DNA of 27,901 bases from a virus. Taxonomy: Duplodnaviria > Heunggongvirae > Uroviricota > Caudoviricetes. The position numbers and the translations under genes were made by a program. A model generated the notes under the pieces. That model made no database searches, was not told the DNA's origin, and worked only from the letters and a program-made list of their open reading frames with translations. Of this stretch, positions 8,275 to 27,901 are shown piece by piece. Within the stretch, counting starts at the first letter, position 1. Each line of letters opens with the position of its first letter. The stretch lies in IMG/VR virus record IMGVR_UViG_2684622620_000012; one strand, given 5' to 3'.

Positions 8275-8280
8275 TCCTGA

Positions 8281-10375: not shown

Positions 10376-10379
10376 GGTT

Positions 10380-11739: not shown

Positions 11740-11813
11740 AATCGTTACCTCATTTAACGGTTTGGTTAGACGCCCTGCATGTGTTGCGAGCACTGCGGGG
11801 CGTTGCTCTTTTA

Positions 11814-11861: not shown

Positions 11862-11926
11862 TCAAGCCTTTTTTTATCATTTTTTTTGCGTATACTGACA
11901 TACACCAATTTTTAGGAGATCCAGAA

Positions 11927-13624: not shown

Positions 13625-13701
13625 AAAAACTCCTGCTATCGAATTAAGTTACTTTTATTTGCTGGTGGATAGCTGGGGGCAATAGCCCCGTAGCCATTTA
13701 A

Positions 13702-13899
13702 TCAGGTAGCTGTTCCGCGTGATTCCGCAATACGCTGATTAATCCACTCGTCAATTTCACTCTCAACGAAAGCAATAGCTCGCGAGCCAATTTTAACTGA
13801 TGCAGGAAATTTACCTTGCCCCATAAGGCGATAAATCCATGCCTTGCTATATCCAGTTCTACGCTGAACTTCTGTTAAACGAATAAGCGTATTTGACAT
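13702..13899 (-). CDS. alpA: AlpA-family transcriptional regulator, 65 aa
   Basis: LIRLTEVQRRTGYSKAWIYRLMGQGKFPASVKIGSRAIAFVESEIDEWI is a close match to the AlpA (CP4-57 regulatory protein) HTH signature. Confidence 0.85.
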   Translation of the reverse strand: MSNTLIRLTEVQRRTGYSKAWIYRLMGQGKFPASVKIGSRAIAFVESEIDEWINQRIAESRGTAT

Positions 13900-14093
13900 A
13901 TATTTACCTCATAACGTCTACTCAATTTGACGAGGTAATCATGGCACAGAAATAACGAATATTTTCATACCCTCAGGCCTAATGGTTACCGGAAGGAAAT
14001 TAACCCTAAGGGTGATGGTAAAATTGACGGGGAAGATAAAAAAATACCCTCAGGGTAACAGTAAATCACCCTCAGGGTATGCGGTATGGTGCG

Positions 14094-14891
14094 TTAATCC
14101 GGCTTTGCGTTCTTTTGGCTGTTGTCTCGGTTAATAGGGCAGGCAGTCCTCTCTATGAGCGTTGCAAGTGCATTACTTGCCCCCCACTGCTTAAGCTCCC
14201 TAGTTATCGCTTCTTGATTTCCCCTGGTGGCAAAATCATTTTCTGGATCGTAATTGGCCCACTCTCTGTTTCTAATCTCAATAGCCTTAGCTAATGGGTC
14301 TTTATCCCAGTATTTATATAAGTGTATCGGGCGCTCTTGCTCTAACTGCTCTATCCTTGCCCTTAACTCTGCGTTTTCTTTTTCCAGCATTGCGATTTGG
14401 GATAATAAATCATCCTCTGTACGCAACTCTTTCTTTTCAATATCGCGTCCTTGTGCCTCGTCATTTTCAGAAGAGTTAGCGCCTTCCAGCTTCGTTAACG
14501 CGTCAAGGACATCGGGAAAAATTGCGAAAATTTCACCCCTTATAAATCCAATGTTCTCAAATTCGGGATCTTCCCAATAACCGGACACCAGAAAACCATT
14601 TTCATCCCTCTCACCAGGTAAACAACCACGTTTCCGAACCGCATTCAGATTTCTATAAAGAACATCATAATCAAATTCATCCCGATACGGGTTACAAAAA
14701 GATTCCAACAGCTTAAATTCATTTACTGTGTACAGGCGGATATGTTCTCCGCTTATTCTCCTGAGTATCCAAGTTATGACATCTGAAACATCATAATCAT
14801 CACCAGCGACCTTAAGCACGACCTCAAGAAATTCACGTAAAGAAATAAAATCTTTTTTGTATTCGTTTAATTCGGCATGAATATCAATCAT
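14094..14891 (-). CDS. hypothetical protein with central coiled coil, 265 aa; cargo gene between int and alpA
   Basis: ATG at 14891 with GAGGT 6 nt upstream; leucine-zipper-like segment LLSQIAMLEKENAELRARIEQLEQE; lower GC than flanking genes; no recognised catalytic motif. Confidence 0.6.
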   Translation of the reverse strand: MIDIHAELNEYKKDFISLREFLEVVLKVAGDDYDVSDVITWILRRISGEHIRLYTVNEFKLLESFCNPYRDEFDYDVLYRNLNAVRKRGCLPGERDENGFLVSGYWEDPEFENIGFIRGEIFAIFPDVLDALTKLEGANSSENDEAQGRDIEKKELRTEDDLLSQIAMLEKENAELRARIEQLEQERPIHLYKYWDKDPLAKAIEIRNREWANYDPENDFATRGNQEAITRELKQWGASNALATLIERTACPINRDNSQKNAKPD

Positions 14892-15019
14892 ACGCACACC
14901 TCAGCGTCCTCTACTGTAGTGGCTGTACCAGTCCGTCGAGGTGTACGGATTTTCGGGAGCGACCCTAGACACAGCCTTTTCTTTCGTCGCTCAAAGTCTA
15001 CTACTGTATACGCAACCAG

Positions 15020-16234
15020 TCATCCACATTTTCCGAACTTGCCATGCACCACGTTACCGCCATGTTCGAGCGAATCCATATAGTCGGCGTACCACTGGAG
15101 CATCTCGCGCCGCCCGTCCAGATATTGCGCATGATTGTACGTGCCACGAATTGAGTTCTTATCAACGTGTGCAAGCTGCGTTTCTATCCACGCGGTGTTA
15201 TAGCCCTGCTCATGTAAAATCGTGCTCATGGTGTGCCGGAATCCATGACCAGTAACCTTTCCGTTATAGCCGATGCGTTTAAATACTTGGTTTATGCTAG
15301 CCTCGCTCATTGTTTTCCTTGGATCATTGCGGCCGGGAAACATAAGCGGATAATTACCAGTTAATTCTTTAATCTGCCCAATAAGAGAAAGAGCCTGCTT
15401 AGACAAAGGCACCACATGAGGGCGACGCATTTTCATCCGTGAAGCAGGTATCTCCCAGATAGCCTTGTTGAGATCGATTTCATCCCATAATGCACCGCGC
15501 AGTTCGCCAGTTCGCAAACCAGTGATAATCAGTAGACGAGCCGCCATAACAACCAATGCACTTCCTGAGTAACTGGACAATGCCTTGAAAAAATCAGGCA
15601 ATTCTTTGGCTGTGAGGAAAGGATAATGATTAGATTCATGGCCTTGCATCGCGCTAGTAAGATCTGGGGCAGGGTTATACTCTGCGCGACCAGTGACTAT
15701 TGCATAGCGGAAAACTTCCCCGCACCGCTGCCTCACTTTTTTGGCTTTTTCTGTAGCACCGCGCCCCTCGATGCGTCGCAGCACATTCAGAAGTTCAAGT
15801 GGTTTGATTTCGGCAATTGGTTTTTTGCCAATGTAAGGGAACACATCTTTGTTGAAGGCTTCGAGGATATCTGAAGCATAACCAGCAGACCATTTTTTTA
15901 ATTTGCTGCTGTGCCACTCAAGGGCAATATCTTTGAAGGTATTGTTTAACTGCGTTTCCCGGGCAATCTTTTCCTCTCGTTTCGCTTCCATCGGATCGAT
16001 ACCCCCAGCGATACCCCTTTTAGCTTCTTCACGTTTTGCACGAGCATCAGCCAAGGTAACTTCAGGATACACACCTAGTGCTAACAGCTTCTCTTTACCA
16101 GCTACACGATATTTAAAGCGCCAGTATTTTCCTCCACTAGGTTTTACCAGGAGATACAGACCACCACCATCAGCCAGCTTGTAAGCCTTCTCTTTTGGCT
16201 TGGCAGTGTCTATTTGACGGGCATTGAGTTTCAC
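15020..16234 (-). CDS. int: tyrosine integrase, P4-type (DUF4102 N-terminus plus phage integrase catalytic domain), 404 aa
   Basis: N-terminal KLNARQIDTAKPKEKAYKLADGGGLYLLVKPSGGKYWRFKYR is the hallmark of P4-family integrases; C-terminal HGFRHT...LAH...RGTY contains the catalytic residues; GTG start with GGAGGT upstream. Confidence 0.9.
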   Translation of the reverse strand: MKLNARQIDTAKPKEKAYKLADGGGLYLLVKPSGGKYWRFKYRVAGKEKLLALGVYPEVTLADARAKREEAKRGIAGGIDPMEAKREEKIARETQLNNTFKDIALEWHSSKLKKWSAGYASDILEAFNKDVFPYIGKKPIAEIKPLELLNVLRRIEGRGATEKAKKVRQRCGEVFRYAIVTGRAEYNPAPDLTSAMQGHESNHYPFLTAKELPDFFKALSSYSGSALVVMAARLLIITGLRTGELRGALWDEIDLNKAIWEIPASRMKMRRPHVVPLSKQALSLIGQIKELTGNYPLMFPGRNDPRKTMSEASINQVFKRIGYNGKVTGHGFRHTMSTILHEQGYNTAWIETQLAHVDKNSIRGTYNHAQYLDGRREMLQWYADYMDSLEHGGNVVHGKFGKCG

Positions 16235-16342
16235 TTGGGGGTACCTCCACTAAACCGAACAGCAAATACCCCCAAAAGTACCCCCAATTGACTGTAGATT
16301 TTGGGGTACTTAAGTAGACGTCAAAAGACTAAAAGGGGCGCT
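16234..16342. repeat. cluster of GTACCCCCAA / GGGGTAC motifs and AAGGGGCGCT upstream of the integrase
   Basis: TTGGGGGTACC (16235-16245, inverted), ATACCCCCAAAAGTACCCCCAA (16266-16287), TTTTGGGGTACTTAAG (16299-16314, inverted), AAAAGGGGCGCT (16331-16342); one copy each also at 5963-5990. Confidence 0.5.
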
Positions 16343-16562
16343 AACATGCGGATTATAAGAGGTTTTTAAATACTTGAGTAGACTTGGGGAGACGTTAGAA
16401 TGGTGCCGATAATAGGAGTAAAACACTCGATTAATCTCGTGTTAATGCCATCACCTACGACCATTACTAATTGATTGAATCTTATAGAAAAAATCATCAT
16501 TTTCTATGCGTTACAATCAATTTTCACATTACAAACGCTCCGACACTTTAGCCGGGGAGTTT

Positions 16563-17840
16563 ATGAGATACAAGCCCAATCAATACATAATCTGTGATTC
16601 TTACGGTAACTACTATTTAAGGATCACGCTGCCTGTGTATATGCAGCCCTTTTTTGAAGGAAAAAGGACGTTTGTCAGAAGTCTACACACAAGTAATCTT
16701 CGTGTTGCACGTAGAAAGCGTGATCAGATTGCAGATGAATACCATTGTCTACGGGAGAGTGTCGCCCCTGTAAACAGCACAATAGAGAACACGCTGGAAC
16801 TGTTACGCAGTAAGGCTAAATACGCCAAAACAGCTACCAGAATGCAAGATACAGCGTCTTCGTGTCCGTCATTGCTTAAAATTCTTGAAATCTACCTGAC
16901 AATTAACAGCACGAAGAAGAAGCCAGCCACTTTAGCTAAAGCAAGAAAAGCGGTAGAGATGTTTCTCTCCTACCGTAAAAAGCCTGATATTGCATTGCAA
17001 GATGTGAGCCGCACCACTGTTACAGGCTGGATTGAACACATGCAAAAAACCCTTTCACAACAATCAATTGCAAATTATATCAGCCCAATGGCCCAGCTAT
17101 GGGAATTAGCTTCATCACGTTACCACGATGCGCCAGAAAGGGCGCTCTCCCCCTGGCGAGGGCATAGGCTTGATGTGGCACAAAGTAGAGAGAGCTACGA
17201 GGCATTTTCTAACAAAGAGCTATTGCAGGTGTTGCAAGTATTTTCCGGTAATTCAGCAGAAAACAAAGAAATGATGGCTTTGTGTCTTATCGGTGCTTAT
17301 ACAGGTATGCGGATCAATGAGATAGCAAGTCTCACAATAGACGATGTGAAAGAGATCGAAGGTGTGCTGTGTTTTGAAATCACACAGGGAAAAACGAAAG
17401 CTGCGGCACGTGTTGTGCCTGTACATAGCCTTATCACTCCGTTGGTGTTGTCGCTGCGTGAAAAGCCTCATAATGGCTTTTTGTTCTATCACGCCAGCAT
17501 TACAGAGCGTGTAGATGGTAAACGTTCCACGTGGCACACGCAGAGATTTACAAGAGCTAAACGAAAGGCTTTAGGGGAAAAGGGAACAGAAAGGAAGGTG
17601 TTTCATTCTCTGAGACACGGAGTAGCACAGCTTCTTGATCGAAATCAAATTCCAGAAGACAGGATCGCCCTTCTCCTGGGCCATACACGCGGTAAAACGG
17701 AGACATTCCGCACATATAGCAAGAATGCAGCTTCTCCAGTAGAGCTTAAAAAATATATTGAGCTTCTACGCTACCCTGAAATAGAGAAAGGCTTATCAAT
17801 CAATAAAAAATCAAATTTAAGGCGTAAAACAACGCCATAG
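16563..17840 (+). CDS. tyrosine recombinase/integrase (second, divergent), about 425 aa
   Basis: C-terminal catalytic signature FHSLRHGVAQLL ... LLGHTRG ... TFRTYSK (R, H-x-x-R, H, Y); ATG at 16563 preceded by GGGGAG; the track ATG at 16506 lacks an SD. AT-rich. Confidence 0.8.
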   Translation: MRYKPNQYIICDSYGNYYLRITLPVYMQPFFEGKRTFVRSLHTSNLRVARRKRDQIADEYHCLRESVAPVNSTIENTLELLRSKAKYAKTATRMQDTASSCPSLLKILEIYLTINSTKKKPATLAKARKAVEMFLSYRKKPDIALQDVSRTTVTGWIEHMQKTLSQQSIANYISPMAQLWELASSRYHDAPERALSPWRGHRLDVAQSRESYEAFSNKELLQVLQVFSGNSAENKEMMALCLIGAYTGMRINEIASLTIDDVKEIEGVLCFEITQGKTKAAARVVPVHSLITPLVLSLREKPHNGFLFYHASITERVDGKRSTWHTQRFTRAKRKALGEKGTERKVFHSLRHGVAQLLDRNQIPEDRIALLLGHTRGKTETFRTYSKNAASPVELKKYIELLRYPEIEKGLSINKKSNLRRKTTP

Positions 17841-17847
17841 ACGTAAT

Positions 17848-17880
17848 AAAGAGGCTTCAACATAGATTGGTAGCCTCTTT
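17848..17880. terminator. bidirectional hairpin AAAGAGGCT...AGCCTCTTT between convergent genes
   Basis: Perfect 9 bp inverted repeat with 15 nt loop and flanking A/T runs, in the 80 bp gap between the recombinase stop (17840) and the 17922..18635 gene stop. Confidence 0.55.
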
Positions 17881-17921
17881 TATAATTACATCGTTACAGA
17901 GCGTTTTAGAGGCGTTTACGG

Positions 17922-18635
17922 CTATTCCTGTTTAAAGGCAGGAGTAATAGTGTCTTCACCTTCACTACTTGATTTTTCAGTGTTAACACGTTTTTTCATA
18001 TTCGCCCCGATGTTCTTAGATGGCTGTGTTTTGATAGCTACAGTGTTTACAGTGCCATACGAAACGAGCCTGATCTGCTCAAAGCTAAGATCAAATACCA
18101 GGGATTCGCTTGCCTCTTCTGTGTATTCGATGCCTGTTAAAACAACGTTCTCAAAAGTTTTATTTTCTGTAACAAGAAGAAAAGGCTGTCTACTGTCCAT
18201 AATCTGATTCAGGTAGTCTATAGCTAATGATCTTCTGTTCCCGTTCACCCCTGCACTCTTTAACAAGCCAGGATCGCTTTTAATCGGTGTTTCAGTGATC
18301 CTACCTTTAAGAGAAAACTTATTGTTTTTAATTTGAACGTGATCAGACACAGTAGCACCATTTTCTACAGGATAGCTAGTAACATCTGCTTGACGTTTTA
18401 CGTTCACATCGTCTACACTGTCAAAAGCCAGTGCCATATAATTTTCATAAACGTCATTGCCAGAAGAAGCCAAGCCACTGGTAACAATAGCAAATCCGTT
18501 CTCTCCTTTTGTTGTATTAGCTTTGCTATTTTCGTTTTTTGTAGAGTTTATATCTTGTTCTGCTTTGTAAACAGCCTGAACGTGTTGTTCTGGAGTATTT
18601 GCTGCACGTATGGTTAAAATCCCGGCGGTCGCCAT
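17922..18635 (-). CDS. hypothetical protein, 237 aa (possible virion/tail-associated protein)
   Basis: Immediately downstream of the tape-measure-like gene; AAGGAAA SD; no motif recognised. Confidence 0.5.
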   Translation of the reverse strand: MATAGILTIRAANTPEQHVQAVYKAEQDINSTKNENSKANTTKGENGFAIVTSGLASSGNDVYENYMALAFDSVDDVNVKRQADVTSYPVENGATVSDHVQIKNNKFSLKGRITETPIKSDPGLLKSAGVNGNRRSLAIDYLNQIMDSRQPFLLVTENKTFENVVLTGIEYTEEASESLVFDLSFEQIRLVSYGTVNTVAIKTQPSKNIGANMKKRVNTEKSSSEGEDTITPAFKQE

Positions 18636-18669
18636 AATAATAATTTTCCTTGTAATGTTATGGCGGGAA

Positions 18670-20508
18670 TTACCCGCCGTTGGATTGTCCTGATAAGCTG
18701 GTTAATGTTAATGATTTCAAGAAGCTATCCCGACTTGCTCTTGCTGTAAAATCCACATAATCGCTTAATCTTGATGTGTCAGAATTAATAGTAAGAGGAA
18801 CCTCTGTTACCACTTCAAATGTAGGATTCAGATTAAACACAGGAGATAAATTATAAGCCGGAGTTGTCATTGCAAGATTATTTAAAGCACCCTGTTTGAG
18901 ATTGGTTATCGGTGCTTCATTGACTGACATTTTTACATCTGACACAGAAGATTTATCATCGAAAAGCAATCCCTTAATCGTGTTAAAGAGAGAATGACTA
19001 TTATCAGGTGTAGTTGTTGCAGTGCCAGCGCCTTTATATTGGTCAGGAACGAGATTAGAAAGATTCTGTTTCATTCCTTCATTGCTTAATGGCGGTGCAT
19101 CACCTAAATTTTTCTGAATAGCCTCTGTCTTATCATCATTACGATTAAACCAGTTTACAATCTTCATAATAGCTTCAAAGAGACTTCCTGTAGCTTCTCC
19201 CAGCTTCGTAAAATACGGAGTGAGATTAGAAAGGTTTTTCATAAACTCTTCCGTTACTTTTGGATCAAGAGATTTCATAAAGCCGTCTACGAATGCTACT
19301 TGTCTTGCATCAGAAAGCTGTGAAAGCTGTCTGTTTAGTTCTCTGAATTTAACGATAGATTCTTGCTGTGTTTCTGTTAGCCATTTTCCAGAGGCTTTTT
19401 GCTGGTTAATACTTTCTTGTACATCTTTAACGGAACGTTGCCAATATTTTGACGTAAGCATCAAATCATCGCCCAGGTCTTCTAAACGTTGTCCAATTTG
19501 AGAATCTGAAAACCCTTTTTTCATCATTCCATTAACAGCCTTAGAAATTAATCCAGCCGGATTATCAGCAAATTTTTTAAGGTCGCTTTTGTTAATAACA
19601 CCGATGTTTAGAAGTTCATTAATAGCGTTATCACCGCCTTTCCATTCAGATTTTCCGGTTTTCTTGTCTTTCACCAATTCAGCTTCACTGTAGGATTTTG
19701 CGGCACGTTCCCTAACATCTTTCATCTGATCCAGGTATTTTCTAGCCCCTTGATCACCCATCATAGAGTCAACGCCGTTTTTATACGCCCATTCTGTAAT
19801 ATTATACATCTGGTTAACGTCTACACCGCCAAGCCTTGCACGTTGGATCAATTCCCCTTGTGTCTCAGCATTGGCAAAACTATTAGCAACGAATTCGTTT
19901 GCTTTACTCATAGCCATCACGCCAGCAGCCGCTGTAGCGCCTCCAAATAACAGAGCGCCCATAGTGGCGGCATTCCCTGATCCTCCCTTAACAGGTGCAT
20001 AGGCTTTAGCGTGAGCGTTACGATTGCCATTAATCTTACGTTGTTGTTGTTGTAAGCGTTTCATCTGGCTATTCATACGTGCAAGCGAGATAGCCCCTTG
20101 CTCATATTGTTTTGCTATCTCTCTAGCCTGTGCAATAGCTTTATATTGTTCCGCTACAGAGAGGCGGTGCATTGCACTAATGCTTGATCCAACGTCTAAC
20201 AGTTTTAAGGCTGCCTTCTCACTGCGTGCTGCTATTTGTGCCTGTTGCCTTGCCTGTGCTCTTGCTGCGGCAGCTTGTGCTCTTTGATTCTGTTTTTCGG
20301 TTTTAGCTTTCTGTTGAGCAATCTTGTCTACTTCGTTTTGTGCTTTCTTATAGCCTTTAGTGACATTATCAAACCTTAATTTAGCTGGCTTGATATTTTC
20401 TGCGAATTCCTTTAAGCCTGTAATAGAGTCTTTCGCTTTTTTCAAGCTGTCTTTATCTACACTAAATGTAACTGTGTTCTTAATTTTAGAAGTGTTAATT
20501 TCTAACAT
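18670..20508 (-). CDS. tape-measure-like protein, 612 aa (long coiled coils plus Gly/Ala-rich hydrophobic segment)
   Basis: N-terminal Q/A/K/R-rich coiled-coil region and GALLFGGATAAAGVMAMS segment resemble phage tail tape-measure proteins; AAGGGGA SD; assignment is by composition only. Confidence 0.45.
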   Translation of the reverse strand: MLEINTSKIKNTVTFSVDKDSLKKAKDSITGLKEFAENIKPAKLRFDNVTKGYKKAQNEVDKIAQQKAKTEKQNQRAQAAAARAQARQQAQIAARSEKAALKLLDVGSSISAMHRLSVAEQYKAIAQAREIAKQYEQGAISLARMNSQMKRLQQQQRKINGNRNAHAKAYAPVKGGSGNAATMGALLFGGATAAAGVMAMSKANEFVANSFANAETQGELIQRARLGGVDVNQMYNITEWAYKNGVDSMMGDQGARKYLDQMKDVRERAAKSYSEAELVKDKKTGKSEWKGGDNAINELLNIGVINKSDLKKFADNPAGLISKAVNGMMKKGFSDSQIGQRLEDLGDDLMLTSKYWQRSVKDVQESINQQKASGKWLTETQQESIVKFRELNRQLSQLSDARQVAFVDGFMKSLDPKVTEEFMKNLSNLTPYFTKLGEATGSLFEAIMKIVNWFNRNDDKTEAIQKNLGDAPPLSNEGMKQNLSNLVPDQYKGAGTATTTPDNSHSLFNTIKGLLFDDKSSVSDVKMSVNEAPITNLKQGALNNLAMTTPAYNLSPVFNLNPTFEVVTEVPLTINSDTSRLSDYVDFTARASRDSFLKSLTLTSLSGQSNGG

Positions 20509-20519
20509 TTAAAATCCCC

Positions 20520-20723
20520 TTAATCATTTTTACCACCTTCTTTACTTAAGAAATGGTGTAGAGCCTGATCAATACTCTCGTTTAATCTGAACATACGGGC
20601 TTTTACTCCTTCATATGGAACATCTAGGAGAGAACAGAGATATTTCAGATTTAACAAGCCTCTAGAATCATTAGCATCTAAATGTACGTGTACACCATTT
20701 TTTGATTTCAAAATCACTTCCAT
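20520..20723 (-). CDS. hypothetical small protein, 67 aa
   Basis: Strong SD GAGGTGA upstream of the ATG; 11 bp before the tape-measure-like gene. Confidence 0.5.
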   Translation of the reverse strand: MEVILKSKNGVHVHLDANDSRGLLNLKYLCSLLDVPYEGVKARMFRLNESIDQALHHFLSKEGGKND

Positions 20724-20753
20724 ATTTTAATCACCTCTCAAAATTTAAAAAAA

Positions 20754-20779
20754 TAAAAAAAAAGGCGAAGCGTGAATAC
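20754..20779 (-). terminator. hairpin followed by a T9 run (minus-strand sense) after the 342 aa gene
   Basis: GCGTG-AATA-CACGC core stem within GGCGAAGCGTG...CGCCACGCC; on the minus strand it is followed by TTTTTTTTTATTTTTTT. Confidence 0.4.
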
Positions 20780-20808
20780 ACGCCACGCCTCTAATACACG
20801 TTAAAATA

Positions 20809-21837
20809 TTATTTAACTGTGATCTGCACAGAGAAGCCAACACCGTGGTTTACCACCATCTGGCTATTCTCTGTAACAACGTTAACAGCATCACCACGAG
20901 AAGATTCATAGCTATAGCTGTACACCTCAGCAGGAGCGGCATTAATCAGTTCAAAGGTGCTGGAAGCCGCCCCATAGATGGCCTGGTAGACGTTAGAGCA
21001 TTTAGCGAATTTAGGCACGGCTACAGCGTCAGCGGTCATATGTGCAAGGTGTAGCGGATCTACCAGTTTAACAACATCAATGTTAGTTCCTGGAATAGTG
21101 AACGCTGTCACCCCTGGCAGCAGGTCACGACGCTGATACACAACGTTCCCTTCTTCCAGTGGGCTTACATACTGGAATGCGTTTGCCATACCCGCAGAGA
21201 ATCGAATTGCAGAGAAGGCTTCCGGCTTACAGAAAACAACAATACGCTCTACAGCAGCCGCCTGGCTTTGTGCTTTCTCGATAATGTCAGTAGCAATCTG
21301 ATCAAATTCTTTAAAAATCTTCGTGGTGTCAGTGCTGGAGGCGTTAACAGTGGCTTTCATAGGTGTCACATTAAACAGCTTGCCCCACTCGATAAGAACA
21401 TCATCAGTTTTCGGGGTGTAGGTGCGACCACTAAACAGAGAAGCAGCCAATACGCTCTCTTTTGTACGCTGATACGCTACGTGGTGTTTAGCAACATAGT
21501 CAGCATAGATATCAGTGAGTGTTTCCTGAAAATCAGTGCCAGGCTTACGCTTGCCTTGCACGTCCTGCGGTTTGATCAGGTCTTGCCTTAAAAAGTACGG
21601 AATTTCAATAAGATATTCTTTACCTTGTTCTCGCTTAGTAACGTTGTGTTCAGAAGAGAAACGAGAGGTTTCTTTGTTGAACAGAGATTCGTTGCTTTCG
21701 ACAAGCTGGGAAACAGCTACTTTATGAGATGTAACCCCTACAGAATCCGTAAAATCAAGAGTAGAGAGCAGATAGTTTCTAGTGCTATGAGCCTGGAAAA
21801 GCGGAGCTAAATCAACGTAATCATTACCTAGAATCAT
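20809..21837 (-). CDS. phage structural-like protein, 342 aa (major capsid or major tail candidate)
   Basis: Size and position (after two small genes, before a terminator and the tape-measure-like gene) fit a major structural protein; no diagnostic motif recognised, so capsid versus tail is unresolved. Confidence 0.4.
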   Translation of the reverse strand: MILGNDYVDLAPLFQAHSTRNYLLSTLDFTDSVGVTSHKVAVSQLVESNESLFNKETSRFSSEHNVTKREQGKEYLIEIPYFLRQDLIKPQDVQGKRKPGTDFQETLTDIYADYVAKHHVAYQRTKESVLAASLFSGRTYTPKTDDVLIEWGKLFNVTPMKATVNASSTDTTKIFKEFDQIATDIIEKAQSQAAAVERIVVFCKPEAFSAIRFSAGMANAFQYVSPLEEGNVVYQRRDLLPGVTAFTIPGTNIDVVKLVDPLHLAHMTADAVAVPKFAKCSNVYQAIYGAASSTFELINAAPAEVYSYSYESSRGDAVNVVTENSQMVVNHGVGFSVQITVK

Positions 21838-21855
21838 TTATTATTATTCCTTTTA

Positions 21856-22218
21856 TTAAGAAGTGAAAACTGTATTAAAGCCTTCAAGCTGGAAGCCTTT
21901 TTTAATTAATGCTGTTTTTGCTGCTTCACTTACAGCATTCAGCGCATCAGCTTTGATGCAGACAAGCCCAGCATTGCTACGTAAAACATCTACAGGCTTG
22001 TTTTCTCCAGCCGTTACAAATTCACTCATAACAACATAAATATCATCTCCTGATTCATATATAGCGCCAGTGCTGGTGATCAAGTCTCCGCATTCAACAT
22101 CAGCAGAAAGAGAAGCAAAAACCTTGCTTTCTACAGAGGCAAACGGATCAGTACAATAACTTACAATATCTGTGAAAGTCTTTCGGACTGGAAACAGAGT
22201 GTCTAAATCAATAATCAT
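21856..22218 (-). CDS. hypothetical protein, 120 aa (possible decoration/connector-type structural protein)
   Basis: ATG overlaps the upstream stop (ATGA); positional inference only. Confidence 0.45.
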   Translation of the reverse strand: MIIDLDTLFPVRKTFTDIVSYCTDPFASVESKVFASLSADVECGDLITSTGAIYESGDDIYVVMSEFVTAGENKPVDVLRSNAGLVCIKADALNAVSEAAKTALIKKGFQLEGFNTVFTS

Positions 22219-22427
22219 TTAGTAATCTCCTTAGCTTTTAATTTGATTAATTCATTAAGGGAAGGTGTAGACGGAGAAGAAGGAGAAAAATATTTTTCAA
22301 CACATCTTTCTACTTCCTCTACAGAACACCCAGCGTATTTAGCTACCATTTCGGTAATTTGTGGATTGATCTTTAGCATTTCATCGCGATACTTGATGAT
22401 TTGCTCTTTATCATTTAAAAACAACAT
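22215..22427 (-). CDS. hypothetical protein, 70 aa
   Basis: ORF with a weak SD; first gene after the terminator at 22495-22521. Confidence 0.4.
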   Translation of the reverse strand: MLFLNDKEQIIKYRDEMLKINPQITEMVAKYAGCSVEEVERCVEKYFSPSSPSTPSLNELIKLKAKEITK

Positions 22428-22494
22428 TTATATAAACCTTGTTACCTTGTTTAAAGTAAGAAATACAACTTTTAAGTTGCATAACGGGCAAAAT

Positions 22495-22521
22495 AAAAGG
22501 CAGCATTTAAAGCCGCCTTTT
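22495..22521. terminator. hairpin AAAAGGCAGC-ATTTAAA-GCCGCCTTTT
   Basis: 10 bp stem with one mismatch, A-run 5' and T-run 3'; separates the upstream early-type genes from the structural-like genes. Confidence 0.45.
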
Positions 22522-22770
22522 ATTAACTTGTACCTATGTAATTACCCTATGTTATGCATACTCCAAGATGTATGCATAACAAAGGAAAAAAGAGGTAATA
22601 ATGACACTTAAGGAGGAGGAGAAGCGGGGAGCGGAGATTTTACTCCCCTTTAATGACAGGAAGAATTTTTAATATCGAACCAATAAAGGAAAAATAATCA
22701 CCCTATATAATTATATTAACATACAATAGATGAAATGTCAAGATATTTTACAACTTTTTTGTTGCTTTTT

Positions 22771-23106
22771 TTATTCTTCTGTGATAACGGCTAAGCGTTG
22801 AGCGAGTTCGATAAGGCCATCTCCCACATAGCGAACATCAGATTCAATATCTTCTATCCAGTTTGATAGCTCCCATATCTGATCGGCTGTCAGGTATGCG
22901 TTCTCACGCTTACAGAGCATCTCTACACGCTTAGAGAGGTTCTCAAAGGCATTCACAGCTAAATCCCAGTGTTTAAACGCCTCATTTAGTGCCGCTGGGG
23001 TGTTTTCTTTGTATGCTTCAAGTTCAGCGCGGTTTAAAGGCAGGAGGTAATCATCCTCATAATAATTAATTAGTGAGTAAATTGTATCATACGTGTTTTT
23101 GTTCAT
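22771..23106 (-). CDS. hypothetical acidic protein, about 111 aa
   Basis: ATG at 23106 with GGAGA upstream, 1 nt after the upstream stop; the track ORF starts at 23133 without an SD. Confidence 0.45.
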   Translation of the reverse strand: MNKNTYDTIYSLINYYEDDYLLPLNRAELEAYKENTPAALNEAFKHWDLAVNAFENLSKRVEMLCKRENAYLTADQIWELSNWIEDIESDVRYVGDGLIELAQRLAVITEE

Positions 23107-23107
23107 A

Positions 23108-23518
23108 TTAAAAGTCTCCATAGTGATCAGCATTATCTAGAATTTGGAATTCAGGAACTAAATTATTTAGGCCATTGGTGGCGAGATAACCAACGTAGTG
23201 ATTATAATCTTCAAATCCTAAAATCTGGTATTTGCGTAAATCAGAGCTGTCAACAATATACTCTTTTCTTTTTCTAGGTTTCCAGAATACGCCAGGTGTT
23301 GAAGATAAGATTTCTTGTAATGCGATATATTCATCTCCACAAGGCACAGAGGGAGAATGTTCTATGATCTCTGTTTTCCATTCGCCAGGGGCGCTATTAT
23401 GCTTGGTGAGCGTAACTAGCTCTTTAAAGTCTTTGCGTCTTAGAATAGATTTAGGTTTACTTAGAAGAGAAGCTGAATCACCGATCTTCTTAACAACGTT
23501 GTTTTTTCTTTTTGCCAT
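23108..23518 (-). CDS. hypothetical protein with basic N-terminus, 136 aa
   Basis: AAGGAAAA SD; N-terminal MAKRKNNVVKK suggests nucleic-acid binding; no motif recognised. Confidence 0.5.
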   Translation of the reverse strand: MAKRKNNVVKKIGDSASLLSKPKSILRRKDFKELVTLTKHNSAPGEWKTEIIEHSPSVPCGDEYIALQEILSSTPGVFWKPRKRKEYIVDSSDLRKYQILGFEDYNHYVGYLATNGLNNLVPEFQILDNADHYGDF

Positions 23519-23650
23519 TATTTACTTTTCCTTTTCTTTTAAAGGAAAACACCCCGAAATATGTTTCTAACGTGAGAAAGAACAATAACCAATACATAGC
23601 TACTATCATAATAATGTTTTCCTTTTATATTTTAATTAAATAGAGAGATT

Positions 23651-23929
23651 TTAGAGAGTGGAATAGATGAATTCTATTTCTTTATCTAGTCTTTTGAGAT
23701 TGAATGTAGAGAAAGATAATTCTTTAATCTCTATAACACCGAAATTTGATAGCTGTTTAAGCCAGAATTTTAAACCATCTTCAGAGCACCCTGCTCGATG
23801 TAACACATCGCTATATTTTAGCGGTGTTGGCTTTCCTTTATAGAGGTAAGCAAGTGTTTCGTAGATGCGTTTTCCTGTGTCATTACACTGAATTCTGTCT
23901 ACTTGATTTTTTACTAAATATTGAATCAT
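23651..23929 (-). CDS. hypothetical protein, 92 aa
   Basis: Strong SD TAAGGAGGG upstream of the ATG. Confidence 0.5.
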   Translation of the reverse strand: MIQYLVKNQVDRIQCNDTGKRIYETLAYLYKGKPTPLKYSDVLHRAGCSEDGLKFWLKQLSNFGVIEIKELSFSTFNLKRLDKEIEFIYSTL

Positions 23930-23940
23930 AACCCTCCTTA

Positions 23941-24594
23941 TTAAAATGGAATATCAAAGTCATCATACACATTTGGGTAATGCTTAGAAAAATATGCCTC
24001 AATACCATTTGGTAGCTTTAACCTGTGCTTATAGGCTAACGATGTTGCAAATTCTATAAAGGATGCTCCTGCTGTTCTGGTGTTTTTCTGCTGGCAGATA
24101 AGAGAGGCAAAATTCTCTAACACATCCTCCTCATTATCATTAGCTACTTTTTCACTTGATGAAACAGGTGTTTCTTCCGTCTCCCACGGCAAAGGCGCAT
24201 CCCAATCATCAAGAACATCAAAAGAAGACTCTTTATTATCTTCCGTAGGGGGAAGCTGATCAGGAACAGCTTTAACAGTAGCTTCTTGTTGTGTCTGGGC
24301 TTCTTGTCTAGCTTCTTCTTGTGGAATATCTACCACTTGATAGACATTAGAACTTCCTGGTCGTGCATCTTTTATAATTAATCCCATTTCGAGCAATTTC
24401 TTAACCCTTTCCTCTGCTGCTCTTGGTGTTATGCCAAAAACATCGCCTATCTTAGCGTAAGAGGGAAATGCACGATCAAACCCTTTCAGATAGCAGTAAA
24501 GGTTTTTAGCACTATCTGTAAATTTATGCCCGTTTACTTGGCTTATTTTTAGAATCCACATAGGAACTTTTACAAATTGTTCTTCATTAATCAT
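23941..24594 (-). CDS. winged-helix DNA-binding protein with acidic C-terminal region, 217 aa (replication-initiator-like)
   Basis: AKNLYCYLKGFDRAFPSYAKIGDVFGITPRAAEERVKKLLEMGLII resembles winged-helix N-terminal domains of replication initiators/replisome organisers; AAGGAG SD. Confidence 0.45.
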   Translation of the reverse strand: MINEEQFVKVPMWILKISQVNGHKFTDSAKNLYCYLKGFDRAFPSYAKIGDVFGITPRAAEERVKKLLEMGLIIKDARPGSSNVYQVVDIPQEEARQEAQTQQEATVKAVPDQLPPTEDNKESSFDVLDDWDAPLPWETEETPVSSSEKVANDNEEDVLENFASLICQQKNTRTAGASFIEFATSLAYKHRLKLPNGIEAYFSKHYPNVYDDFDIPF

Positions 24595-24645
24595 TAAAAA
24601 TCTCCTTATAAATCACGCTTAATGCGCTACTAAAGTGAATGAGGA

Positions 24646-24813
24646 TCACTTACCCTTTTTTTGTTTGATGTTCTCTGCTGCTTCAGTAATGATTTCTAAC
24701 ATCAAATCACTGACCATAATTTGCCTTTTCTTGGCTTCAGCAAATAAAACCTTGAAGATTTCAGGGTCAACGTGTAGGTAAGTGCGCGGAATTGGTTTCT
24801 TGGTTTCGCTCAT
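24646..24813 (-). CDS. ribbon-helix-helix (CopG/Arc-like) DNA-binding protein, 55 aa
   Basis: Not in the ORF track (under 60 aa). GAAGGAGAAAACT upstream of the ATG; PRTYLHVDPEIFKVLFAEAKKRQIMVSDLMLEIITEA fits beta-strand plus two helices. Confidence 0.55.
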   Translation of the reverse strand: MSETKKPIPRTYLHVDPEIFKVLFAEAKKRQIMVSDLMLEIITEAAENIKQKKGK

Positions 24814-24832
24814 AGTTTTCTCCTTCTATTCT

Positions 24833-25021
24833 TTACTCTGTTTCAGATTCTTTTTCATTTTTTCTTAGTTCATCAATAATCTTGAGTGCTTCATTGAAGC
24901 AAGCTGCTCGCTCTGGATAACCTCGACTCCTTGCCATATTACGATTCATTACTACTTGATGGCGAGATAACTCACCTTTTTTAAATGCCGAGACGACGTG
25001 CTCCGGTGTAAACCATTTCAT
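24833..25021 (-). CDS. hypothetical small protein, 62 aa, first gene of the minus-strand operon
   Basis: AAGGAG SD upstream of the ATG at 25021; putative promoter upstream. Confidence 0.5.
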   Translation of the reverse strand: MKWFTPEHVVSAFKKGELSRHQVVMNRNMARSRGYPERAACFNEALKIIDELRKNEKESETE

Positions 25022-25130
25022 AAAAACTCCTTATTCAGTTAAAAGAAAAAACACCTTGCAAGCCTGACGGCTTCAAAGTGCATTGATTTTGATTATTTAG
25101 AGAAGAATGTTTTTCTGTCCCTCTAATACC

Positions 25131-25159
25131 TATTATTACATATAAAGAAACATTTGTCA
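25131..25159 (-). promoter_or_regulatory. putative sigma70 promoter (TTGACA, 17 bp spacer, AATAAT) for the 25021 operon
   Basis: On the minus strand TTGACAAATGTTTCTTTATATGTAATAAT: perfect -35 hexamer and an AT-rich -10-like hexamer about 100 bp upstream of the first start codon. Confidence 0.4.
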
Positions 25160-26241
25160 ATACCTTTTCATAAAAAATCTGATCTTTTTCATGCACTTAC
25201 ATTTTTTCTTAGCAATTCGTGCTCTCTTGTGTAGTGCTATTCTTCATTATTGTCTAATAACGCTCTAAAACGCGTTATAACGAGATTTTGATAAAAGCAA
25301 TACATTCCCTTATGTAATGGCTGTTTAGCTCGCCAGAGGCTTATTTAAGGGGCTTATTTTGTATTTGTTAGGTATATGAAAAGGTGATGGTAGATATAAG
25401 ATAGAGAGTCACTTTATAAAACGCTCTGTAAAGCTCTGTAGTGAGCTTATATGTGTAGGCAATGCGTTTCCATTCCCTACCCTGCTTAATGCTGTTAGAG
25501 AAGCATTTAGACCCCTTATTTTTAATTACCTAAAGTATCCTCTATACACTCCTGTTATGAAACACCTCTGAATCCTTCATAAAACACATTATGACGCAAA
25601 GAACACTTTTCTAAGGTGATTCCCTTCCTGAATGCTGTTTCTTGCGTCAGAGAGCTACACAGAGCTTATAAAGCTATTATTAATAATAAAGTAGATAAAG
25701 TAAGTAAGATAAAGTAAGAAGATTAACTAAGATAGATAAGATTAATAAGATCAGAATTCTCTTTCGGTGTCGCCTCTGGCTTTTCCACCGAAAACAATTA
25801 CACGACTACAGAATGTAGGAAGTGAAATTGTATTGAGGCTTAGTGAAATTACACGAGGAAAGCAGAGTGTAATTGAGCTTTAGCCGCTCTCTCTTCGAGT
25901 AATTACACAACTACAGAGAATAACAGAGTTATTAAATGTAGGAGGGTAATTAAGAGTTAGAGAGAGTTAACACGTAAGCAATCAGTATGATTGGTTAGGT
26001 GATTACTCTTACTGCGCACAGCGCAATAGTATTTCTTCGTGGGCGTTACCGCCAACGAAGTTACACGAAGAAAGTAACGCTTTGCTTTCGGTGTGAGCGG
26101 AACGGGCCAGCCACGTAGCCCGAAAGGTAGCGGAGTAAGGCTGCTTGCCAGAGAGTGAAGCTAACGCCGGAAGGCAAAAAGATCATATAAATAAATATAT
26201 AATATTATAATTTAATAAGTAATTTAATAAATGATCTAATA

Positions 26242-26380
26242 GGTAACAGAATTCTGTGGGGGTGTCTAACAGTTTTCTGTGGGGGTGTCTAACAGAATTC
26301 TGTTAGGGTGGGGTAACAGAATTTTGTTAGGGTAAAAATCTCTTTAAAAGTTAAGATTAACAGAATTCTGTGGGGGTAGC
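26242..26380. repeat. five direct ~23 bp iterons TAACAGAATTCTGTGGGGGTGTC, each with an ACAGAATTCTGT palindrome
   Basis: Four abutting copies at 26242-26337 and a fifth at 26358-26380; variants TAACAGTTTTCTGTGGGGGTGTC, TAACAGAATTCTGTTAGGGTGGGG, TAACAGAATTTTGTTAGGGTAAAA. Confidence 0.75.
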
Positions 26381-26477
26381 TCACAGTGACCTACCGTTAC
26401 TACCAACTTTCTTACAGAGAGCATTTCAGATAGCTGAATGTAACCTCTCGTTACATCCATTTGTCACATAGCACTCA

Positions 26478-27263
26478 CTCTGTGTAATGCCTTTCTATGT
26501 GTGTGCCATAATCCCCCCTATATTCCCTGTGTAAATCATAGAATATCCCTAACTTATTCCTGTGTAATTCCATACTAAAAATTCAATGAAAAGTAGCTTA
26601 AAAGAGCAATTCTCACTTTCTTCACTTTTACATCACTTTCGCAAATCCTTGTGTAGTGCGGCTTACAGAGCACCATCAGAAATTGTTGGCTAAAAATTGT
26701 TCTGCTTGTTTCTGAACGAGTTCTCTCGTTTGTGCAAATTTTAAAATTTATTTTGTTTTTACAGCCTTATTTCGTGTAATGCGTGGCATAGCAAGCCCTT
26801 TTCTTGTGTTGTCAAAACATTTGGCAACGTTCAAACATCTGTTTAGAAATGCCAAATTGTTGATCTAACAAATAAACCTGTATAAACAGAACACCATTTA
26901 ATCTATTCCCCTGTGTAATCCACTACATCACACGATAAAAACAAAAAAACCTTTAATTATATTTCATAACATATAAAAGTCAACAGAAGCCCTCTCGTGC
27001 TCCTACGTAAAAAATCCATCACTTTTCCCCTGATACATCAATTCAAGGCGTTCTATGTGTTCCTTAGTGCATATTACGATTATTATGTTAAATGGATTTT
27101 GGCCTATATTTTGACCTGCACCCGCATAAACACTGGTTTCATCGCTTACAGCCCTTGTGAGACGTGGTGCTGTTTCTAGCATCTGATCCGACATAAAACC
27201 GATCATTCTCGTGTTTAGTGAAAGTTTAGTGAGAGACATTACAGAAAGGCTTTCTGTGTAATG
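26478..27263. repeat. dispersed same-orientation motif (T)TCCTGTGTA(A/G)T(G)C, at least 7 copies
   Basis: Copies at about 26478, 26525, 26567, 26647, 26770, 26908 and 27251, plus CTTGTGTAGTGC at 25228; spacing 45-350 bp. Confidence 0.65.
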
Positions 27264-27402
27264 ATTTAATAGGTAAAAACGATGTTGATTACGCAAGAAA
27301 ATTCCTTGCTGATATTTGGGGATTCTGGATTTTCCAGATCGGGGGGCGCTGAAAATCGCGTTAAGCACCTCTCGCAATCTAGCCATAAGGGAGGGGATTC
27401 AT

Positions 27403-27495
27403 ATGTATTTAGATGTATTTATAGCTATTTATAGCTATTTATGGCTATTTATTTTTTATTTACCTTTATTCAAAAATAACCTTATAAATCAATAA
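27403..27495 (+). CDS. putative 30 aa hydrophobic peptide (MYLDVFIAIYSYLWLFIFYLPLFKNNLINQ)
   Basis: Near-consensus SD AAGGGAGGGG 6 nt upstream of the ATG; ~22-residue hydrophobic stretch; coding sequence overlaps a tandem TATTTATAGC repeat. Not in the ORF track (under 60 aa). Confidence 0.3.
   Translation: MYLDVFIAIYSYLWLFIFYLPLFKNNLINQ
27404..27452. repeat. tandem 10 bp repeat TATTTATAGC (3-4 copies)
   Basis: GTATTTAGATGTATTTATAGCTATTTATAGCTATTTATGGCTATTTATT; followed at 27545-27580 by three CCTTAAAT(A) repeats. Confidence 0.6.
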
Positions 27496-27742
27496 GATGC
27501 AGAGCTATCTGTTTATATTTTAATCAATTAAATCAAGTTTAATACCCTTAAATCCCCTTAAAATAGCCTTAAATACCCCAATAATTAATTTTAAGGTTTT
27601 CCGTGTTCTCTTCTGCATTATGAAAATGCAAAATAAGGCACAAAACAAGCTCACAGACGCATTAAACACACATCACATATACATCCCTATACCAAGCAAT
27701 GAAAACAGCGTTAGAATGCGTCTTGTTGCGTTCTGGAGATTT

Positions 27743-27901
27743 TCAGAAATCCTCTCTAAGCCATTTCAACTCACTAAGGAGTTTTCTTTCTTCGTTCTCT
27801 CGTTGCTTTCGCTCTAGCCAGGCTTTTCCCTCTGGCGTAGACAGGAACTTACGAGCGTGAATCTTGCGGTTATTACGTTTTATAGCTGCAATGTTTTTCA
27901 T
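27743..27901 (-). CDS. small basic protein, 52 aa, starting at the window edge (possibly 5'-truncated)
   Basis: ATG at 27899-27901, TGA at 27743-27745; K/R/E-rich; RBS cannot be assessed because it lies outside the window; plus-strand ORF 27620..27817 competes. Confidence 0.3.
   Translation of the reverse strand: MKNIAAIKRNNRKIHARKFLSTPEGKAWLERKQRENEERKLLSELKWLREDF

Follow-up and report, generated by a model that had tools for sequence, protein, structure and literature searches.

The window analysed here is the whole 27,901-nt stretch of the IMG/VR virus record IMGVR_UViG_2684622620_000012, and the subject of this work is an integrative element which occupies its right-hand part. A preliminary description of this DNA had listed twelve minus-strand open reading frames (ORFs) between 17922 and 25021, with products of 237, 612, 67, 342, 120, 70, 120, 136, 92, 217, 55 and 62 amino acids (aa), and each of them was found where it had been placed. 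The 342-aa product had been described as structural-like and the 612-aa product as tape-measure-like, and the 237-aa product had been put forward with them for structural assignment; profile searches assigned the three to Phage_cap_E, to the tape-measure proteins and to Dit_like, respectively.

DNA and protein searches of 50,697 phage records gave matches almost only in the ~150-kb myoviruses of the Stephanstirmvirinae, namely in Justusliebigvirus (phi92-like phages) and Phapecoctavirus (phAPEC8-like phages). Stephanstirmvirinae are known as virulent phages, and in anticipation of the interpretation given below we refer to them as helpers. Phage phi92 has a 148.6-kb genome which encodes all of its virion and packaging proteins, and its capsid is of the T=13 type; the virion was solved by cryo-electron microscopy in 2026, with gp135 as the hexameric tube initiator, gp134 as the trimeric tape measure and gp124 as the T=13 major capsid protein (PMC13450770).

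The 237-aa protein (17922-18635, minus strand) matches PF21821 with an E-value of 4.2e-29 (101.7 bits, at a cut-off of 24.2) and Phi92_gp135 in the PDB (21vq_N) with 2.9e-80, the tube initiators of phiTE and Pam3 being matched as well. Judged by this domain and by homology to a structurally defined initiator, it is a Dit-like tail-tube initiator, 61-62% identical to the Justusliebigvirus protein and 56% identical to the Phapecoctavirus one, and its ratio of nonsynonymous to synonymous substitution rates (dN/dS) is 0.04-0.12. Directly upstream, the 612-aa product (18670-20508, minus strand; phrog_16051, 1.7e-54) is a homolog of the 659-aa gp134 (1.7e-39 to Phi92_gp134 in the PDB), and this virion-verified homolog, together with the position upstream of the initiator gene, identifies it as a tape-measure protein. 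Its N-terminal 66 aa are 53% identical to the helper protein and its middle part about 31%; its length is 609-629 aa across the family, it is about 47 aa shorter than that of phi92, and its dN/dS is about 0.2.

The 342-aa protein (20809-21837, minus strand) matches Phage_cap_E (PF03864) over its full length (residues 14-341; 3e-14; 53.3 bits, at a cut-off of 22.9), and the best PDB match of its family profile is Phi92_gp124 (4.9e-19, positions 2-342 against 3-332). In an AlphaFold2 (AF2) model of moderate confidence (predicted local distance difference test, pLDDT, of 55), the top Foldseek matches with E<=0.001 were all phage capsid proteins (phiTE, ICP1, Bas63, Sf14 and YSD1), the lambda capsid standing just above 0.001. 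By these profile and model comparisons it is a major capsid protein of the HK97 fold (lambda-E type) and a distant full-length homolog of phi92 gp124, with 22-24% identity to the proteins of both helper genera. Its length stays at 341-348 aa across homologs of 38-96% identity, and its dN/dS is 0.11-0.17.

The order of these genes parallels that of the helper, with a small gene before the major capsid gene, followed by another small gene, the tape-measure gene and the initiator gene. The likeness to the structural module of phi92 and other Stephanstirmvirinae thus lies in three homologous proteins in the same relative order and, as described below, in DNA from the boundary of the direct terminal repeat (DTR) that is identical over 40 nt; the difference is that the element holds just these three of the phage's virion genes and, in addition, an integrase gene and attachment (att) sites. 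Apart from these three, no element protein has a homolog in two complete helper genomes, and Pfam, PHROGs and the helper-genome comparison gave no terminase, portal, protease, sheath, tube, baseplate or holin/lysis matches among the element proteins. The preliminary description had seen no Walker-A protein, and this was borne out, as the motif [AG]xxxxGK[ST] is absent from every stop-to-stop frame of at least 40 aa in 16400-27901.

Borders, integration site and distribution

The feature exceeds the coordinates from which the preliminary description started, as it also takes in a recombinase gene with a left attachment site (16400-17840) and, on the other side, a 2.7-kb region almost free of ORFs (25200-27900). 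The recombinase, encoded by a 444-aa ORF (16506-17840, plus strand) and annotated with 425 aa in RefSeq relatives, is a tyrosine integrase (PF00589, 4.6e-17) with DUF6538 and a SAM-like domain; it is convergent with the structural genes, as had been noticed before. It is 97-99% conserved in all E. coli relatives and always lies at the same end of the element, while its identity to K-12 IntF and to the integrase of the neighbouring island is 24-28%.

The attL (16400-16419, without strand) is a 20-nt repeat, ATGGTGCCGATAATAGGAGT, composed of the last 19 nt of the thrW gene for tRNA-Thr(CGU) and one further nucleotide. It matches the 3' end of K-12 thrW exactly and occurs once in the window. In E. 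coli MRE162, ATGGTGCCGATAATAGGAGT forms direct repeats (repeat family D3) 12,018 bp apart which flank the element; the unit between them is colinear with window 16400-27901 at 97% identity, and its attR lies about 630 bp past the equivalent of the window end, where a CP4-type island without relation to the element begins. Three metagenome contigs have their att repeats 12,080-12,436 bp apart, and there too the second repeat stands 0.6 kb past the equivalent of the window end and is followed by chromosomal or island DNA. Because thrW repeats flank a unit of about 12 kb, we place the element between 16400 and a point about 630 bp beyond the window, recombinase included; on these sequence grounds, the genes described here belong to an integrative element of about 12.1-12.4 kb inserted at the 3' end of thrW. 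The GC content is 0.34-0.44 in the element part and 0.39-0.53 in the left half of the window.

A remainder beyond the right edge had been proposed, which would amount to the terminase, portal and tail genes of a larger prophage, and the window does end inside the element, with matches to relatives running to its last base. This explanation has next to no chance of being correct, as attR follows within 0.6 kb in MRE162 and in the three metagenome contigs, and the last ~630 bp before attR in MRE162 hold no credible ORF. A complete prophage in the flanking DNA and an assignment of the structural proteins to non-virion families had been named as outcomes that would speak against a satellite, and neither was found. 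The intF/yagJ-N region of K-12 CP4-6 was considered as a degenerate copy of the element and rejected, since IntF, although encoded at the same position of the chromosome, is not orthologous (24% identity) and the genes are oriented differently.

Of 5,426 complete E. coli genomes, 278 contain at least 80% of the element and 770 contain part of it, so that carriage ranges from about 5% (near-complete) to about 14% (at least part). Homologs of the major capsid protein (341-348 aa) were found in Escherichia, Citrobacter, Klebsiella, Enterobacter, Cronobacter, Sodalis and Serratia, and those of the 120-aa protein encoded next to it also in Leclercia; a single-protein scan of GTDB gave only one close relative. 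The order of regulators, Rep, small genes, major capsid gene, small gene, tape-measure gene, (initiator) and integrase is conserved, and this order, a gene-free region of 1.6-2.6 kb and the size of about 12 kb recur in a metagenomic locus (L009, 63% identity of the capsid protein) and in a Serratia relative. Among close and distant relatives, dN/dS is 0.04-0.22 for the initiator, the tape measure, the major capsid protein and the 120-, 70- and 67-aa proteins.

These data bear on another proposal of the preliminary description, a defective prophage remnant, which would have started with a complete virion module and be in decay. Such an origin would fit the tRNA-linked array of islands, the cryptic-prophage-like DNA that adjoins the element and the small number of structural genes. 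Nevertheless, it appears very improbable to us, given the low dN/dS, the conserved protein lengths, the intact att repeats and a gene set and ~12-kb architecture that are the same across genera, from E. coli to Serratia; moreover, among phages the homologous tape measure and initiator are found only in the ~150-kb Stephanstirmvirinae, and a non-coding site is strongly conserved as well. Individual copies are disrupted nonetheless. In loci L020 and L022 the tape measure is matched over only 54% of its length, and the copies of strains CEA212U and OkiPb01677 (E. coli matches H21 and H26) have annotated IS3/IS600 insertions within the element; some copies are thus inactivated, although the family as a whole is under purifying selection.

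Replication initiator, putative origin and putative packaging site

The 217-aa protein (23941-24594, minus strand) had been called a winged-helix Rep-like protein, and it is indeed a Rep/O-like initiator with an N-terminal winged-helix DNA-binding domain (phrog_270, 1.4e-10; HTH_36). A putative origin lies at 26175-26387 (without strand), where an AT-rich stretch is followed by five iterons TAACAGAATTCTGT with a spacing of 23-24 bp (repeat family D1). Rep is hypervariable, with 24-94% identity while neighbouring genes show 93-100%, and many alleles occur in E. coli. Elements whose Rep proteins are at least 90% identical have the same commonest 11-mer upstream of the early operon, and elements with divergent Rep alleles have another, as seen in a crude k-mer screen of upstream repeat motifs whose position offsets are unreliable.

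Part of this Rep is also encoded by helper phages. The first 119 residues of gp053 (328 aa) of the Phapecoctavirus Mt1B1_P17 are 82% identical to the window Rep; a second protein, P0064, found in 150-kb phage contigs, is identical to it over the first 111 residues, and the Rep allele of the satellite locus L025 is 99.2% identical to the Mt1B1_P17 gene at the nucleotide level. The C-terminal domain of the phage chimera matches phrog_681 ("endonuclease", 2e-19) and MUG113 (25 bits, at a cut-off of 22.3), as well as T5orf172 at 0.005, which is below the cut-off; MUG113 and T5orf172 belong to the GIY-YIG superfamily. We thus infer that some Stephanstirmvirinae encode the DNA-binding domain of the element's Rep fused to a putative GIY-YIG-type nuclease. 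A precedent is known from phage ICP1, whose Odn combines the DNA-binding domain of the PLE RepA with T5orf172, cuts the PLE origin and destroys PLE (PMC8263062). By analogy, the phage chimera would be an Odn-like counter-weapon against the element, predicted to cleave its iteron origin. Among the family loci L012-L029, very different Rep alleles (24-56% identity) replace one another where the flanking genes of the elements are 93-100% identical; this swapping is consistent with diversifying selection exerted by the chimeric nucleases.

The region to the right of the genes (25200-27900) is practically free of ORFs, and in relatives it has no gene annotation in RefSeq. It carries a short stretch that matches helper DNA. 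At 27309-27377 (plus strand) lies a copy of the inner DTR boundary of the helper, and its core, 27338-27377, is identical in 40 of 40 positions to phi92 318-357. According to the GenBank annotation, the left DTR of phi92 spans 1-343, and the 40-nt block thus straddles the inner boundary (...CGCGTTA|AGCAC..., where the bar marks the boundary), at which the genome end is generated; the equivalent of the cut is predicted between 27363 and 27364. Several Justusliebigvirus records with the same start point carry the block at 318-363, and it is the only strong DNA match of the 2.9-kb non-coding region among the 50,697 phage records. A relaxed motif, GATATTT...TCGGGGGG...GTTAA, is single-copy in 15 satellites (13 loci besides the window and MRE162), occurs once per Justusliebigvirus record and is absent from the rest of 0.9 Mb of fetched DNA.

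Five loci (L008, L014 and L024-26) are without this Justusliebigvirus-type block and have at the same place a block of about 80 bp which is 80-83% identical to positions 19054-19134 of the Phapecoctavirus B15. In an alignment the B15 segment proved homologous to the boundary in phi92: both have the flanks TGATATTT and TTCGCGTTAAGCAC, and the core differs. The satellite site thus exists in two versions, each fitting one helper genus, and near-identical satellites (95-96% identity of the capsid protein) can differ in the version they carry. In our view, no other evidence speaks as strongly for a function of the site with the packaging machinery of the helper as this co-variation with the helper genus, as read from the sequences, and we propose the site as a putative site of terminase recognition and cleavage. 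B15 is one of a group of records titled "UNVERIFIED: Campylobacter phage" (A150, B15 and others; L034-L039; MG065639.1 and MG065650.1) which are classified as Justusliebigvirus or Phapecoctavirus; they behave like coliphages in every comparison, and their host label looks wrong.

The combination of a Rep-type initiator with an iteron origin, and the mosaic phage similarity of the structural genes, might also suggest an integrative plasmid-like or otherwise self-sufficient element that has captured phage genes and depends on no helper. We consider this quite improbable, though. Scans of Pfam, PHROGs, NCBIfam and PADLOC revealed no conjugation, mobilisation or partition genes; the supposedly captured genes are kept by selection as a fixed syntenic set across genera; and a DTR-boundary site matched to the helper would have no explanation.

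The predicted satellite and its known counterparts

Two general properties of satellites can be read from the sequence. The element has functions of its own for integration and replication (the integrase, the att repeats, Rep and five iterons), and its set of virion, packaging and lysis genes is incomplete, with virion homologs only for the major capsid protein, the tape measure and the initiator. Among the options left by the preliminary description, a satellite-like element encoding part of a virion is therefore the one that fits, with att repeats about 12 kb apart, these three proteins only and the copy of the helper DTR boundary. It is highly likely, in our view, that the element is a satellite of virulent Stephanstirmvirinae, relatives of phi92 and phAPEC8, and by the version of its putative packaging site this copy is matched to the phi92-like Justusliebigvirus.

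If so, the following life cycle may be envisaged. Infection by a helper would lead to excision and to Rep-driven replication from the iteron origin, with the help of replisome proteins of the host or the helper. The element's own capsid protein would then form a small shell for about 12 kb around the portal, scaffold and protease of the helper; by rough geometric scaling from the helper (T=13 for 148.6 kb), a T=3 shell would hold about 13 kb and a T=4 shell about 21 kb, and the shell might thus be roughly T=3 to T=4. The helper terminase would recognise and cut the mimic site and package the satellite DNA, while tails would be chimeric, with helper baseplate, tube, sheath and fibres assembled on the satellite initiator and on a tape measure shorter by about 47 aa. 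Such tails would allow the satellite to block helper tail assembly without blocking its own, and one of the early proteins (120, 136 or 92 aa) could, by analogy, be an inhibitor similar to Rta of PLE. Lysis by the helper would finally free the particles, and the integrase would insert the element at thrW of a new cell.

Several points weigh against this interpretation. Induction, excision, replication and packaging are predictions. No circular or free ~12-kb form was found: the IMG/VR matches are all from genomes of isolates, and those metagenome contigs which extend to att or into flanking DNA look integrated and have no terminal overlap, those of 12-13 kb being integrated copies broken at att. 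That the capsid protein is compatible with the portal, scaffold and protease of the helper is an assumption, because it is only 22-24% identical to the helper's own; furthermore, no cement, scaffold or chaperone was matched by the 120-, 70- and 67-aa proteins in model, hhalign and profile comparisons, and no excisionase, repressor or helper-sensing component was identified among the element proteins. The assignment of the DTR boundary depends on coordinates annotated in GenBank. Only the inner boundary is copied, as a word-7 search of the phi92 concatemer junction found no copy of the outer one, and the cutting of a unit-length genome is therefore left unexplained. The non-coding regions of L009 and L011 gave no phage match and that of L028 no match related to Stephanstirmvirinae; the helpers of these distant relatives are probably not sequenced yet. 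Finally, the nuclease assignment of the phage chimera rests on profile matches.

One may also ask whether the element serves only as an anti-phage defence island, in which the capsid protein, tape measure and initiator would be dominant-negative decoys, the DTR copy would be a decoy for the terminase and the element would never be packaged. The similarity to the helper is strongest at the parts which would have to contact it (62% for the initiator and 53% for the N-terminus of the tape measure), phages carry an apparent counter-weapon, public contigs include no packaged form, and known satellites such as PLE act as defences too (PMC12987554). Still, intact att sites with their integrase, Rep and an iteron origin, a size closely kept at about 12 kb and a packaging-site copy that switches with the helper genus are of use to a mobilised element and would not be required by a static defence locus, and PADLOC found no known defence protein. 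An exclusive defence role thus seems unlikely to us; since defence and satellite transfer are not mutually exclusive, it would be a sub-case of the satellite interpretation more than a rival to it.

In function, PLE and the cf-PICIs are the nearest counterparts of the predicted satellite, which we count among neither. It resembles PLE, the chromosomal satellite of the virulent myovirus ICP1, in its Rep-type initiator with an iteron origin, in a private tail-core module and in a helper-encoded chimera of the satellite Rep DNA-binding domain with a T5orf172/GIY-YIG domain (Odn in ICP1; in our case assigned by profiles). It differs in having a tyrosine integrase and a Rep of the HTH_36 type, while PLE has a serine recombinase and RepA_N. 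Furthermore, PLE takes the helper coat protein and reshapes it with the TcaP scaffold, whereas our element encodes its own capsid protein, and PLE is an element of about 18 kb from Vibrio, whereas the one described here has about 12 kb, resides in Enterobacterales and mimics a DTR boundary. Because its initiator is HTH_36/O-like and its recombinase of the tyrosine type, we do not file the element as a PLE, a distinction that is made by protein types and not by sequence comparison; the PLE marker set comprises 15 genes, including capR, repA with RepA_N, and nixI (PMC10085698). The chimeric tails have a direct precedent from experiments in PLE11, which replaces the tail assembly chaperone, tape measure and baseplate hub of ICP1 with its own proteins of 20, 20 and 41% identity and builds chimeric tails about 10 nm shorter (PMC12987554); the corresponding module of our element consists of the 67-aa protein, the tape measure (25-32% identity to the helper) and the tube initiator (50-77%). 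PLE11 can deploy Rta, an inhibitor of the helper tape measure, because its own tail proteins form its tails (PMC12987554).

With cf-PICIs the element shares the principle of an own HK97-fold major capsid protein, the rest of the virion coming from the helper, and some cf-PICIs are reported to carry putative tmp genes (PMC12987554, Extended Data Fig. 10). However, cf-PICIs also encode portal, protease, head-tail adaptor, connector, terminase subunit(s), AlpA and primase (PMC10085698), and their helpers are temperate; of the cf-PICI genes we found the major capsid gene only, without portal, protease, connectors or terminase and in the company of tail genes. PICIs of Gram-negative bacteria are defined by an integrase, AlpA, a primase-replicase, a capsid-morphogenesis gene and a small terminase, with tail genes excluded; the element departs from this set, as its proteins gave no AlpA, primase or TerS matches and two tail genes are present. 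As tail genes are forbidden components in the PICI and cf-PICI models of SatelliteFinder (PMC10085698), this program would miss such elements.

P4-like satellites resemble the element in being E. coli elements of about 11-12 kb with a tRNA-gene site and a tyrosine integrase, and a small capsid is expected in our case as well. P4 uses a copy of the packaging site (cos) of its helper, and copying a helper packaging site is the strategy predicted for our element. Unlike the element, P4 is devoid of virion genes and uses Sid, Psu and Delta to change the size of the capsids of its helper, P2, which is a temperate phage. The P4-like core consists of the Psu-Delta-Sid operon, the alpha primase-helicase, epsilon and AlpA (PMC10085698), and no Pfam, PHROG or NCBIfam match to any of these was obtained with the element proteins.

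Satellites with capsid genes are also known from actinobacterial hosts, namely the EPIPs of Mycolicibacterium and MiniFlayer and MulchMansion of Streptomyces (PMC12822802, PMC10690885). EPIPs have a tape-measure gene too, associated with an altered tail length (PMC12822802), and, in contrast to our element, add a small terminase, adaptor, stopper and scaffold; these elements were compared by description. Taken one by one, neither gene is thus new to satellites: a tape measure is known from PLE11, some cf-PICIs and EPIPs (PMC12987554, PMC12822802), and an own major capsid protein from cf-PICIs, MiniFlayer and EPIPs (PMC10085698, PMC10690885, PMC12822802). A full-text literature search, which covered few papers of subscription journals, brought up no description of the present family. 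We found no described family that would combine a major capsid protein, a tape measure and a tube initiator with the lack of portal, connector and terminase genes, with Stephanstirmvirinae helpers and with a mimic of the DTR boundary, PLE being set apart by description.

Going one step further, we lean, if only somewhat, towards the view that a satellite family widespread in Enterobacterales has its first recognised member in this element; that the family builds a small capsid from its own, anciently diverged capsid protein, forms chimeric tails and is packaged by means of a DTR site which recombines between versions specific to the helper genera; that it is fought by Rep-derived phage nucleases; and that the arms race between ICP1 and PLE was thus independently re-invented in E. 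coli. Were this true, a tractable counterpart of the Vibrio system would be available in E. coli and other Enterobacterales, in a model organism and with helpers in public collections (phi92, and Bas60 "PaulScherrer" of the BASEL collection). It would extend satellite-built chimeric tails beyond Vibrio, and a capsid protein of its own in a satellite that has neither portal nor connector genes would be new as a combination. It would also matter for phage therapy, as Phapecoctavirus and Justusliebigvirus are commonly proposed as therapeutic agents and about 5% of complete E. coli genomes carry a near-complete element and 14% at least part of one. What a DTR-type terminase recognises is poorly understood where large myoviruses are concerned; with one version of the site for each helper genus, a natural swap experiment is at hand that could define it. 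Satellite finders that forbid tail genes have a blind spot and cannot see this family.

Control signals, small proteins and neighbouring islands

A promoter had been expected near 25140, and a near-consensus, sigma70-like site was found at 25160-25132 on the minus strand (TTGACA-17-AATAAT, 11/12, with a TG extension), from which the regulatory and replication operon would be transcribed. A second one, TTGACA-17-TAATAT with TG, lies at 22741-22713 (minus strand) in front of the capsid operon and is followed by a structured leader of about 285 nt (22428-22741 with the promoter, minus strand; fold of -76 kcal/mol, z = -5.1). This leader suggests a possible control of the capsid operon by attenuation or antitermination. 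Both terminators that had been reported were recovered: a terminator-like hairpin with a U tract at about 22522-22490 (minus strand), before the 70-aa gene, and a strong intrinsic terminator after the 342-aa gene, between the capsid and tail modules (20767-20791, minus strand; a 9-bp stem with 5 GC pairs and a T run). The idea of one long operon has to be abandoned, because the second promoter and the terminators separate at least three transcription units.

The 70-aa protein (22215-22427, minus strand) is encoded by the first gene of the capsid operon and is kept in most subfamilies, with a dN/dS of 0.05-0.18; it had no family match in Pfam, PHROGs, NCBIfam or PADLOC, and a role as any of the small structural proteins of the helper was rejected for lack of profile similarity. 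Next to it, the 120-aa protein (21856-22218, minus strand) is encoded upstream of the major capsid gene, at the position of the helper cement protein, and has 91 homologs, all in elements of this family in Enterobacterales (dN/dS 0.12-0.16). A head cement or decoration function was considered for it and rejected: hhalign gave about 1% probability against the helper cement, a sequence search of the PDB was empty and the AF2 model was unusable (pLDDT 40). The 67-aa protein (20520-20723, minus strand) is encoded directly upstream of the tape measure, where the helper has a 75-aa protein and PLE a tail assembly chaperone; it is kept in most family members with a dN/dS of at most 0.06, and its candidacy as a chaperone was dropped, as there was no profile similarity to the small tail proteins of the helper.

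Three further small proteins of 120, 136 and 92 aa are encoded by early genes at 22771-23929 (minus strand). They are conserved across the family, had no match in Pfam, PHROGs, NCBIfam or PADLOC and no homolog in two complete helper genomes, and they are candidates for helper interference or regulation. The two leader-proximal proteins of 55 and 62 aa (24646-25021, minus strand) are conserved ORFs without a family match in the libraries searched, NCBIfam and PADLOC included; we presume that they are regulators. The 55-aa protein had been labelled ribbon-helix-helix, for which no library gave support. Near the right end, a basic 52-aa ORF (27743-27901, minus strand) is 96-100% conserved, also in the divergent E. 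coli subfamily, and bears the RefSeq accession WP_000788777.1 in relatives; it may have a role in excision or regulation.

Within the non-coding region, a GC-rich stretch at 25760-26200 (minus strand) is strongly structured, with a minimum free energy of -132.8 against -96.8 +/- 5.7 kcal/mol for shuffled sequences (z = -6.35), and no Rfam family came near threshold. In relatives, this stretch is either at least 96% identical or replaced, save for short conserved islands at about 25827-25888, 25994-26034 and 26073-26184. It could act as a regulatory RNA, of which P4 immunity offers an example, or form a DNA structure that belongs to the origin; transcription could start from a near-consensus promoter at 26983-26956 (minus strand). 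A block at 26819-26864 with an inverted repeat, TTGGCA-N21-TGCCAA, is 87-95% conserved even in a subfamily with 64% identity of the capsid protein, whose non-coding DNA is otherwise unalignable, and it looks like a protein-binding site. Positions 25506-25527 match phi92 147334-147355 in 21 of 22 nucleotides (E = 7e-4 in a small local search), within the unannotated right genome end about 0.9 kb before the right terminal repeat; this may be due to chance or may reflect a second shared cis element. Directly to the right of the DTR-boundary copy, short tandem and palindromic repeats at 27416-27450 and 27541-27582 (ATAGCTATTTAT-type, and AATACCCTTAAATCCCCTTAA twice) could be arm sites of the integrase or accessory binding sites of the terminase.

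The left part of the window, 1-16417, is a separate island, 100% identical to an island of E. coli APEC20/16, which has it without the element of interest; the island homology stops at 16417-16419. It encodes a P4-type integrase (15020-16234, minus strand), a RepA-family AAA_25 helicase (8676-10088), an Icd-like protein, an AntA/AntB antirepressor (12824-13624), PerC, ProQ/FinO and an SDH ClpP-like serine protease (5993-6889). Two unrelated mobile elements thus stand in tandem, the left-hand island abutting the same thrW repeat as the element; this repeat was located at 16400-16419 in the window and at 12001-12022 and 24019-24040 in locus L001. The 3' end of thrW serves as the site of at least three tyrosine integrases, namely the P4-type enzyme, the integrase of the element and the one encoded by the CP4-type island of MRE162; the last two have only 24-28% identity to each other and to K-12 IntF, where compared. 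Tandem arrays of islands result at thrW, each island being bounded by the same 20-nt repeat.

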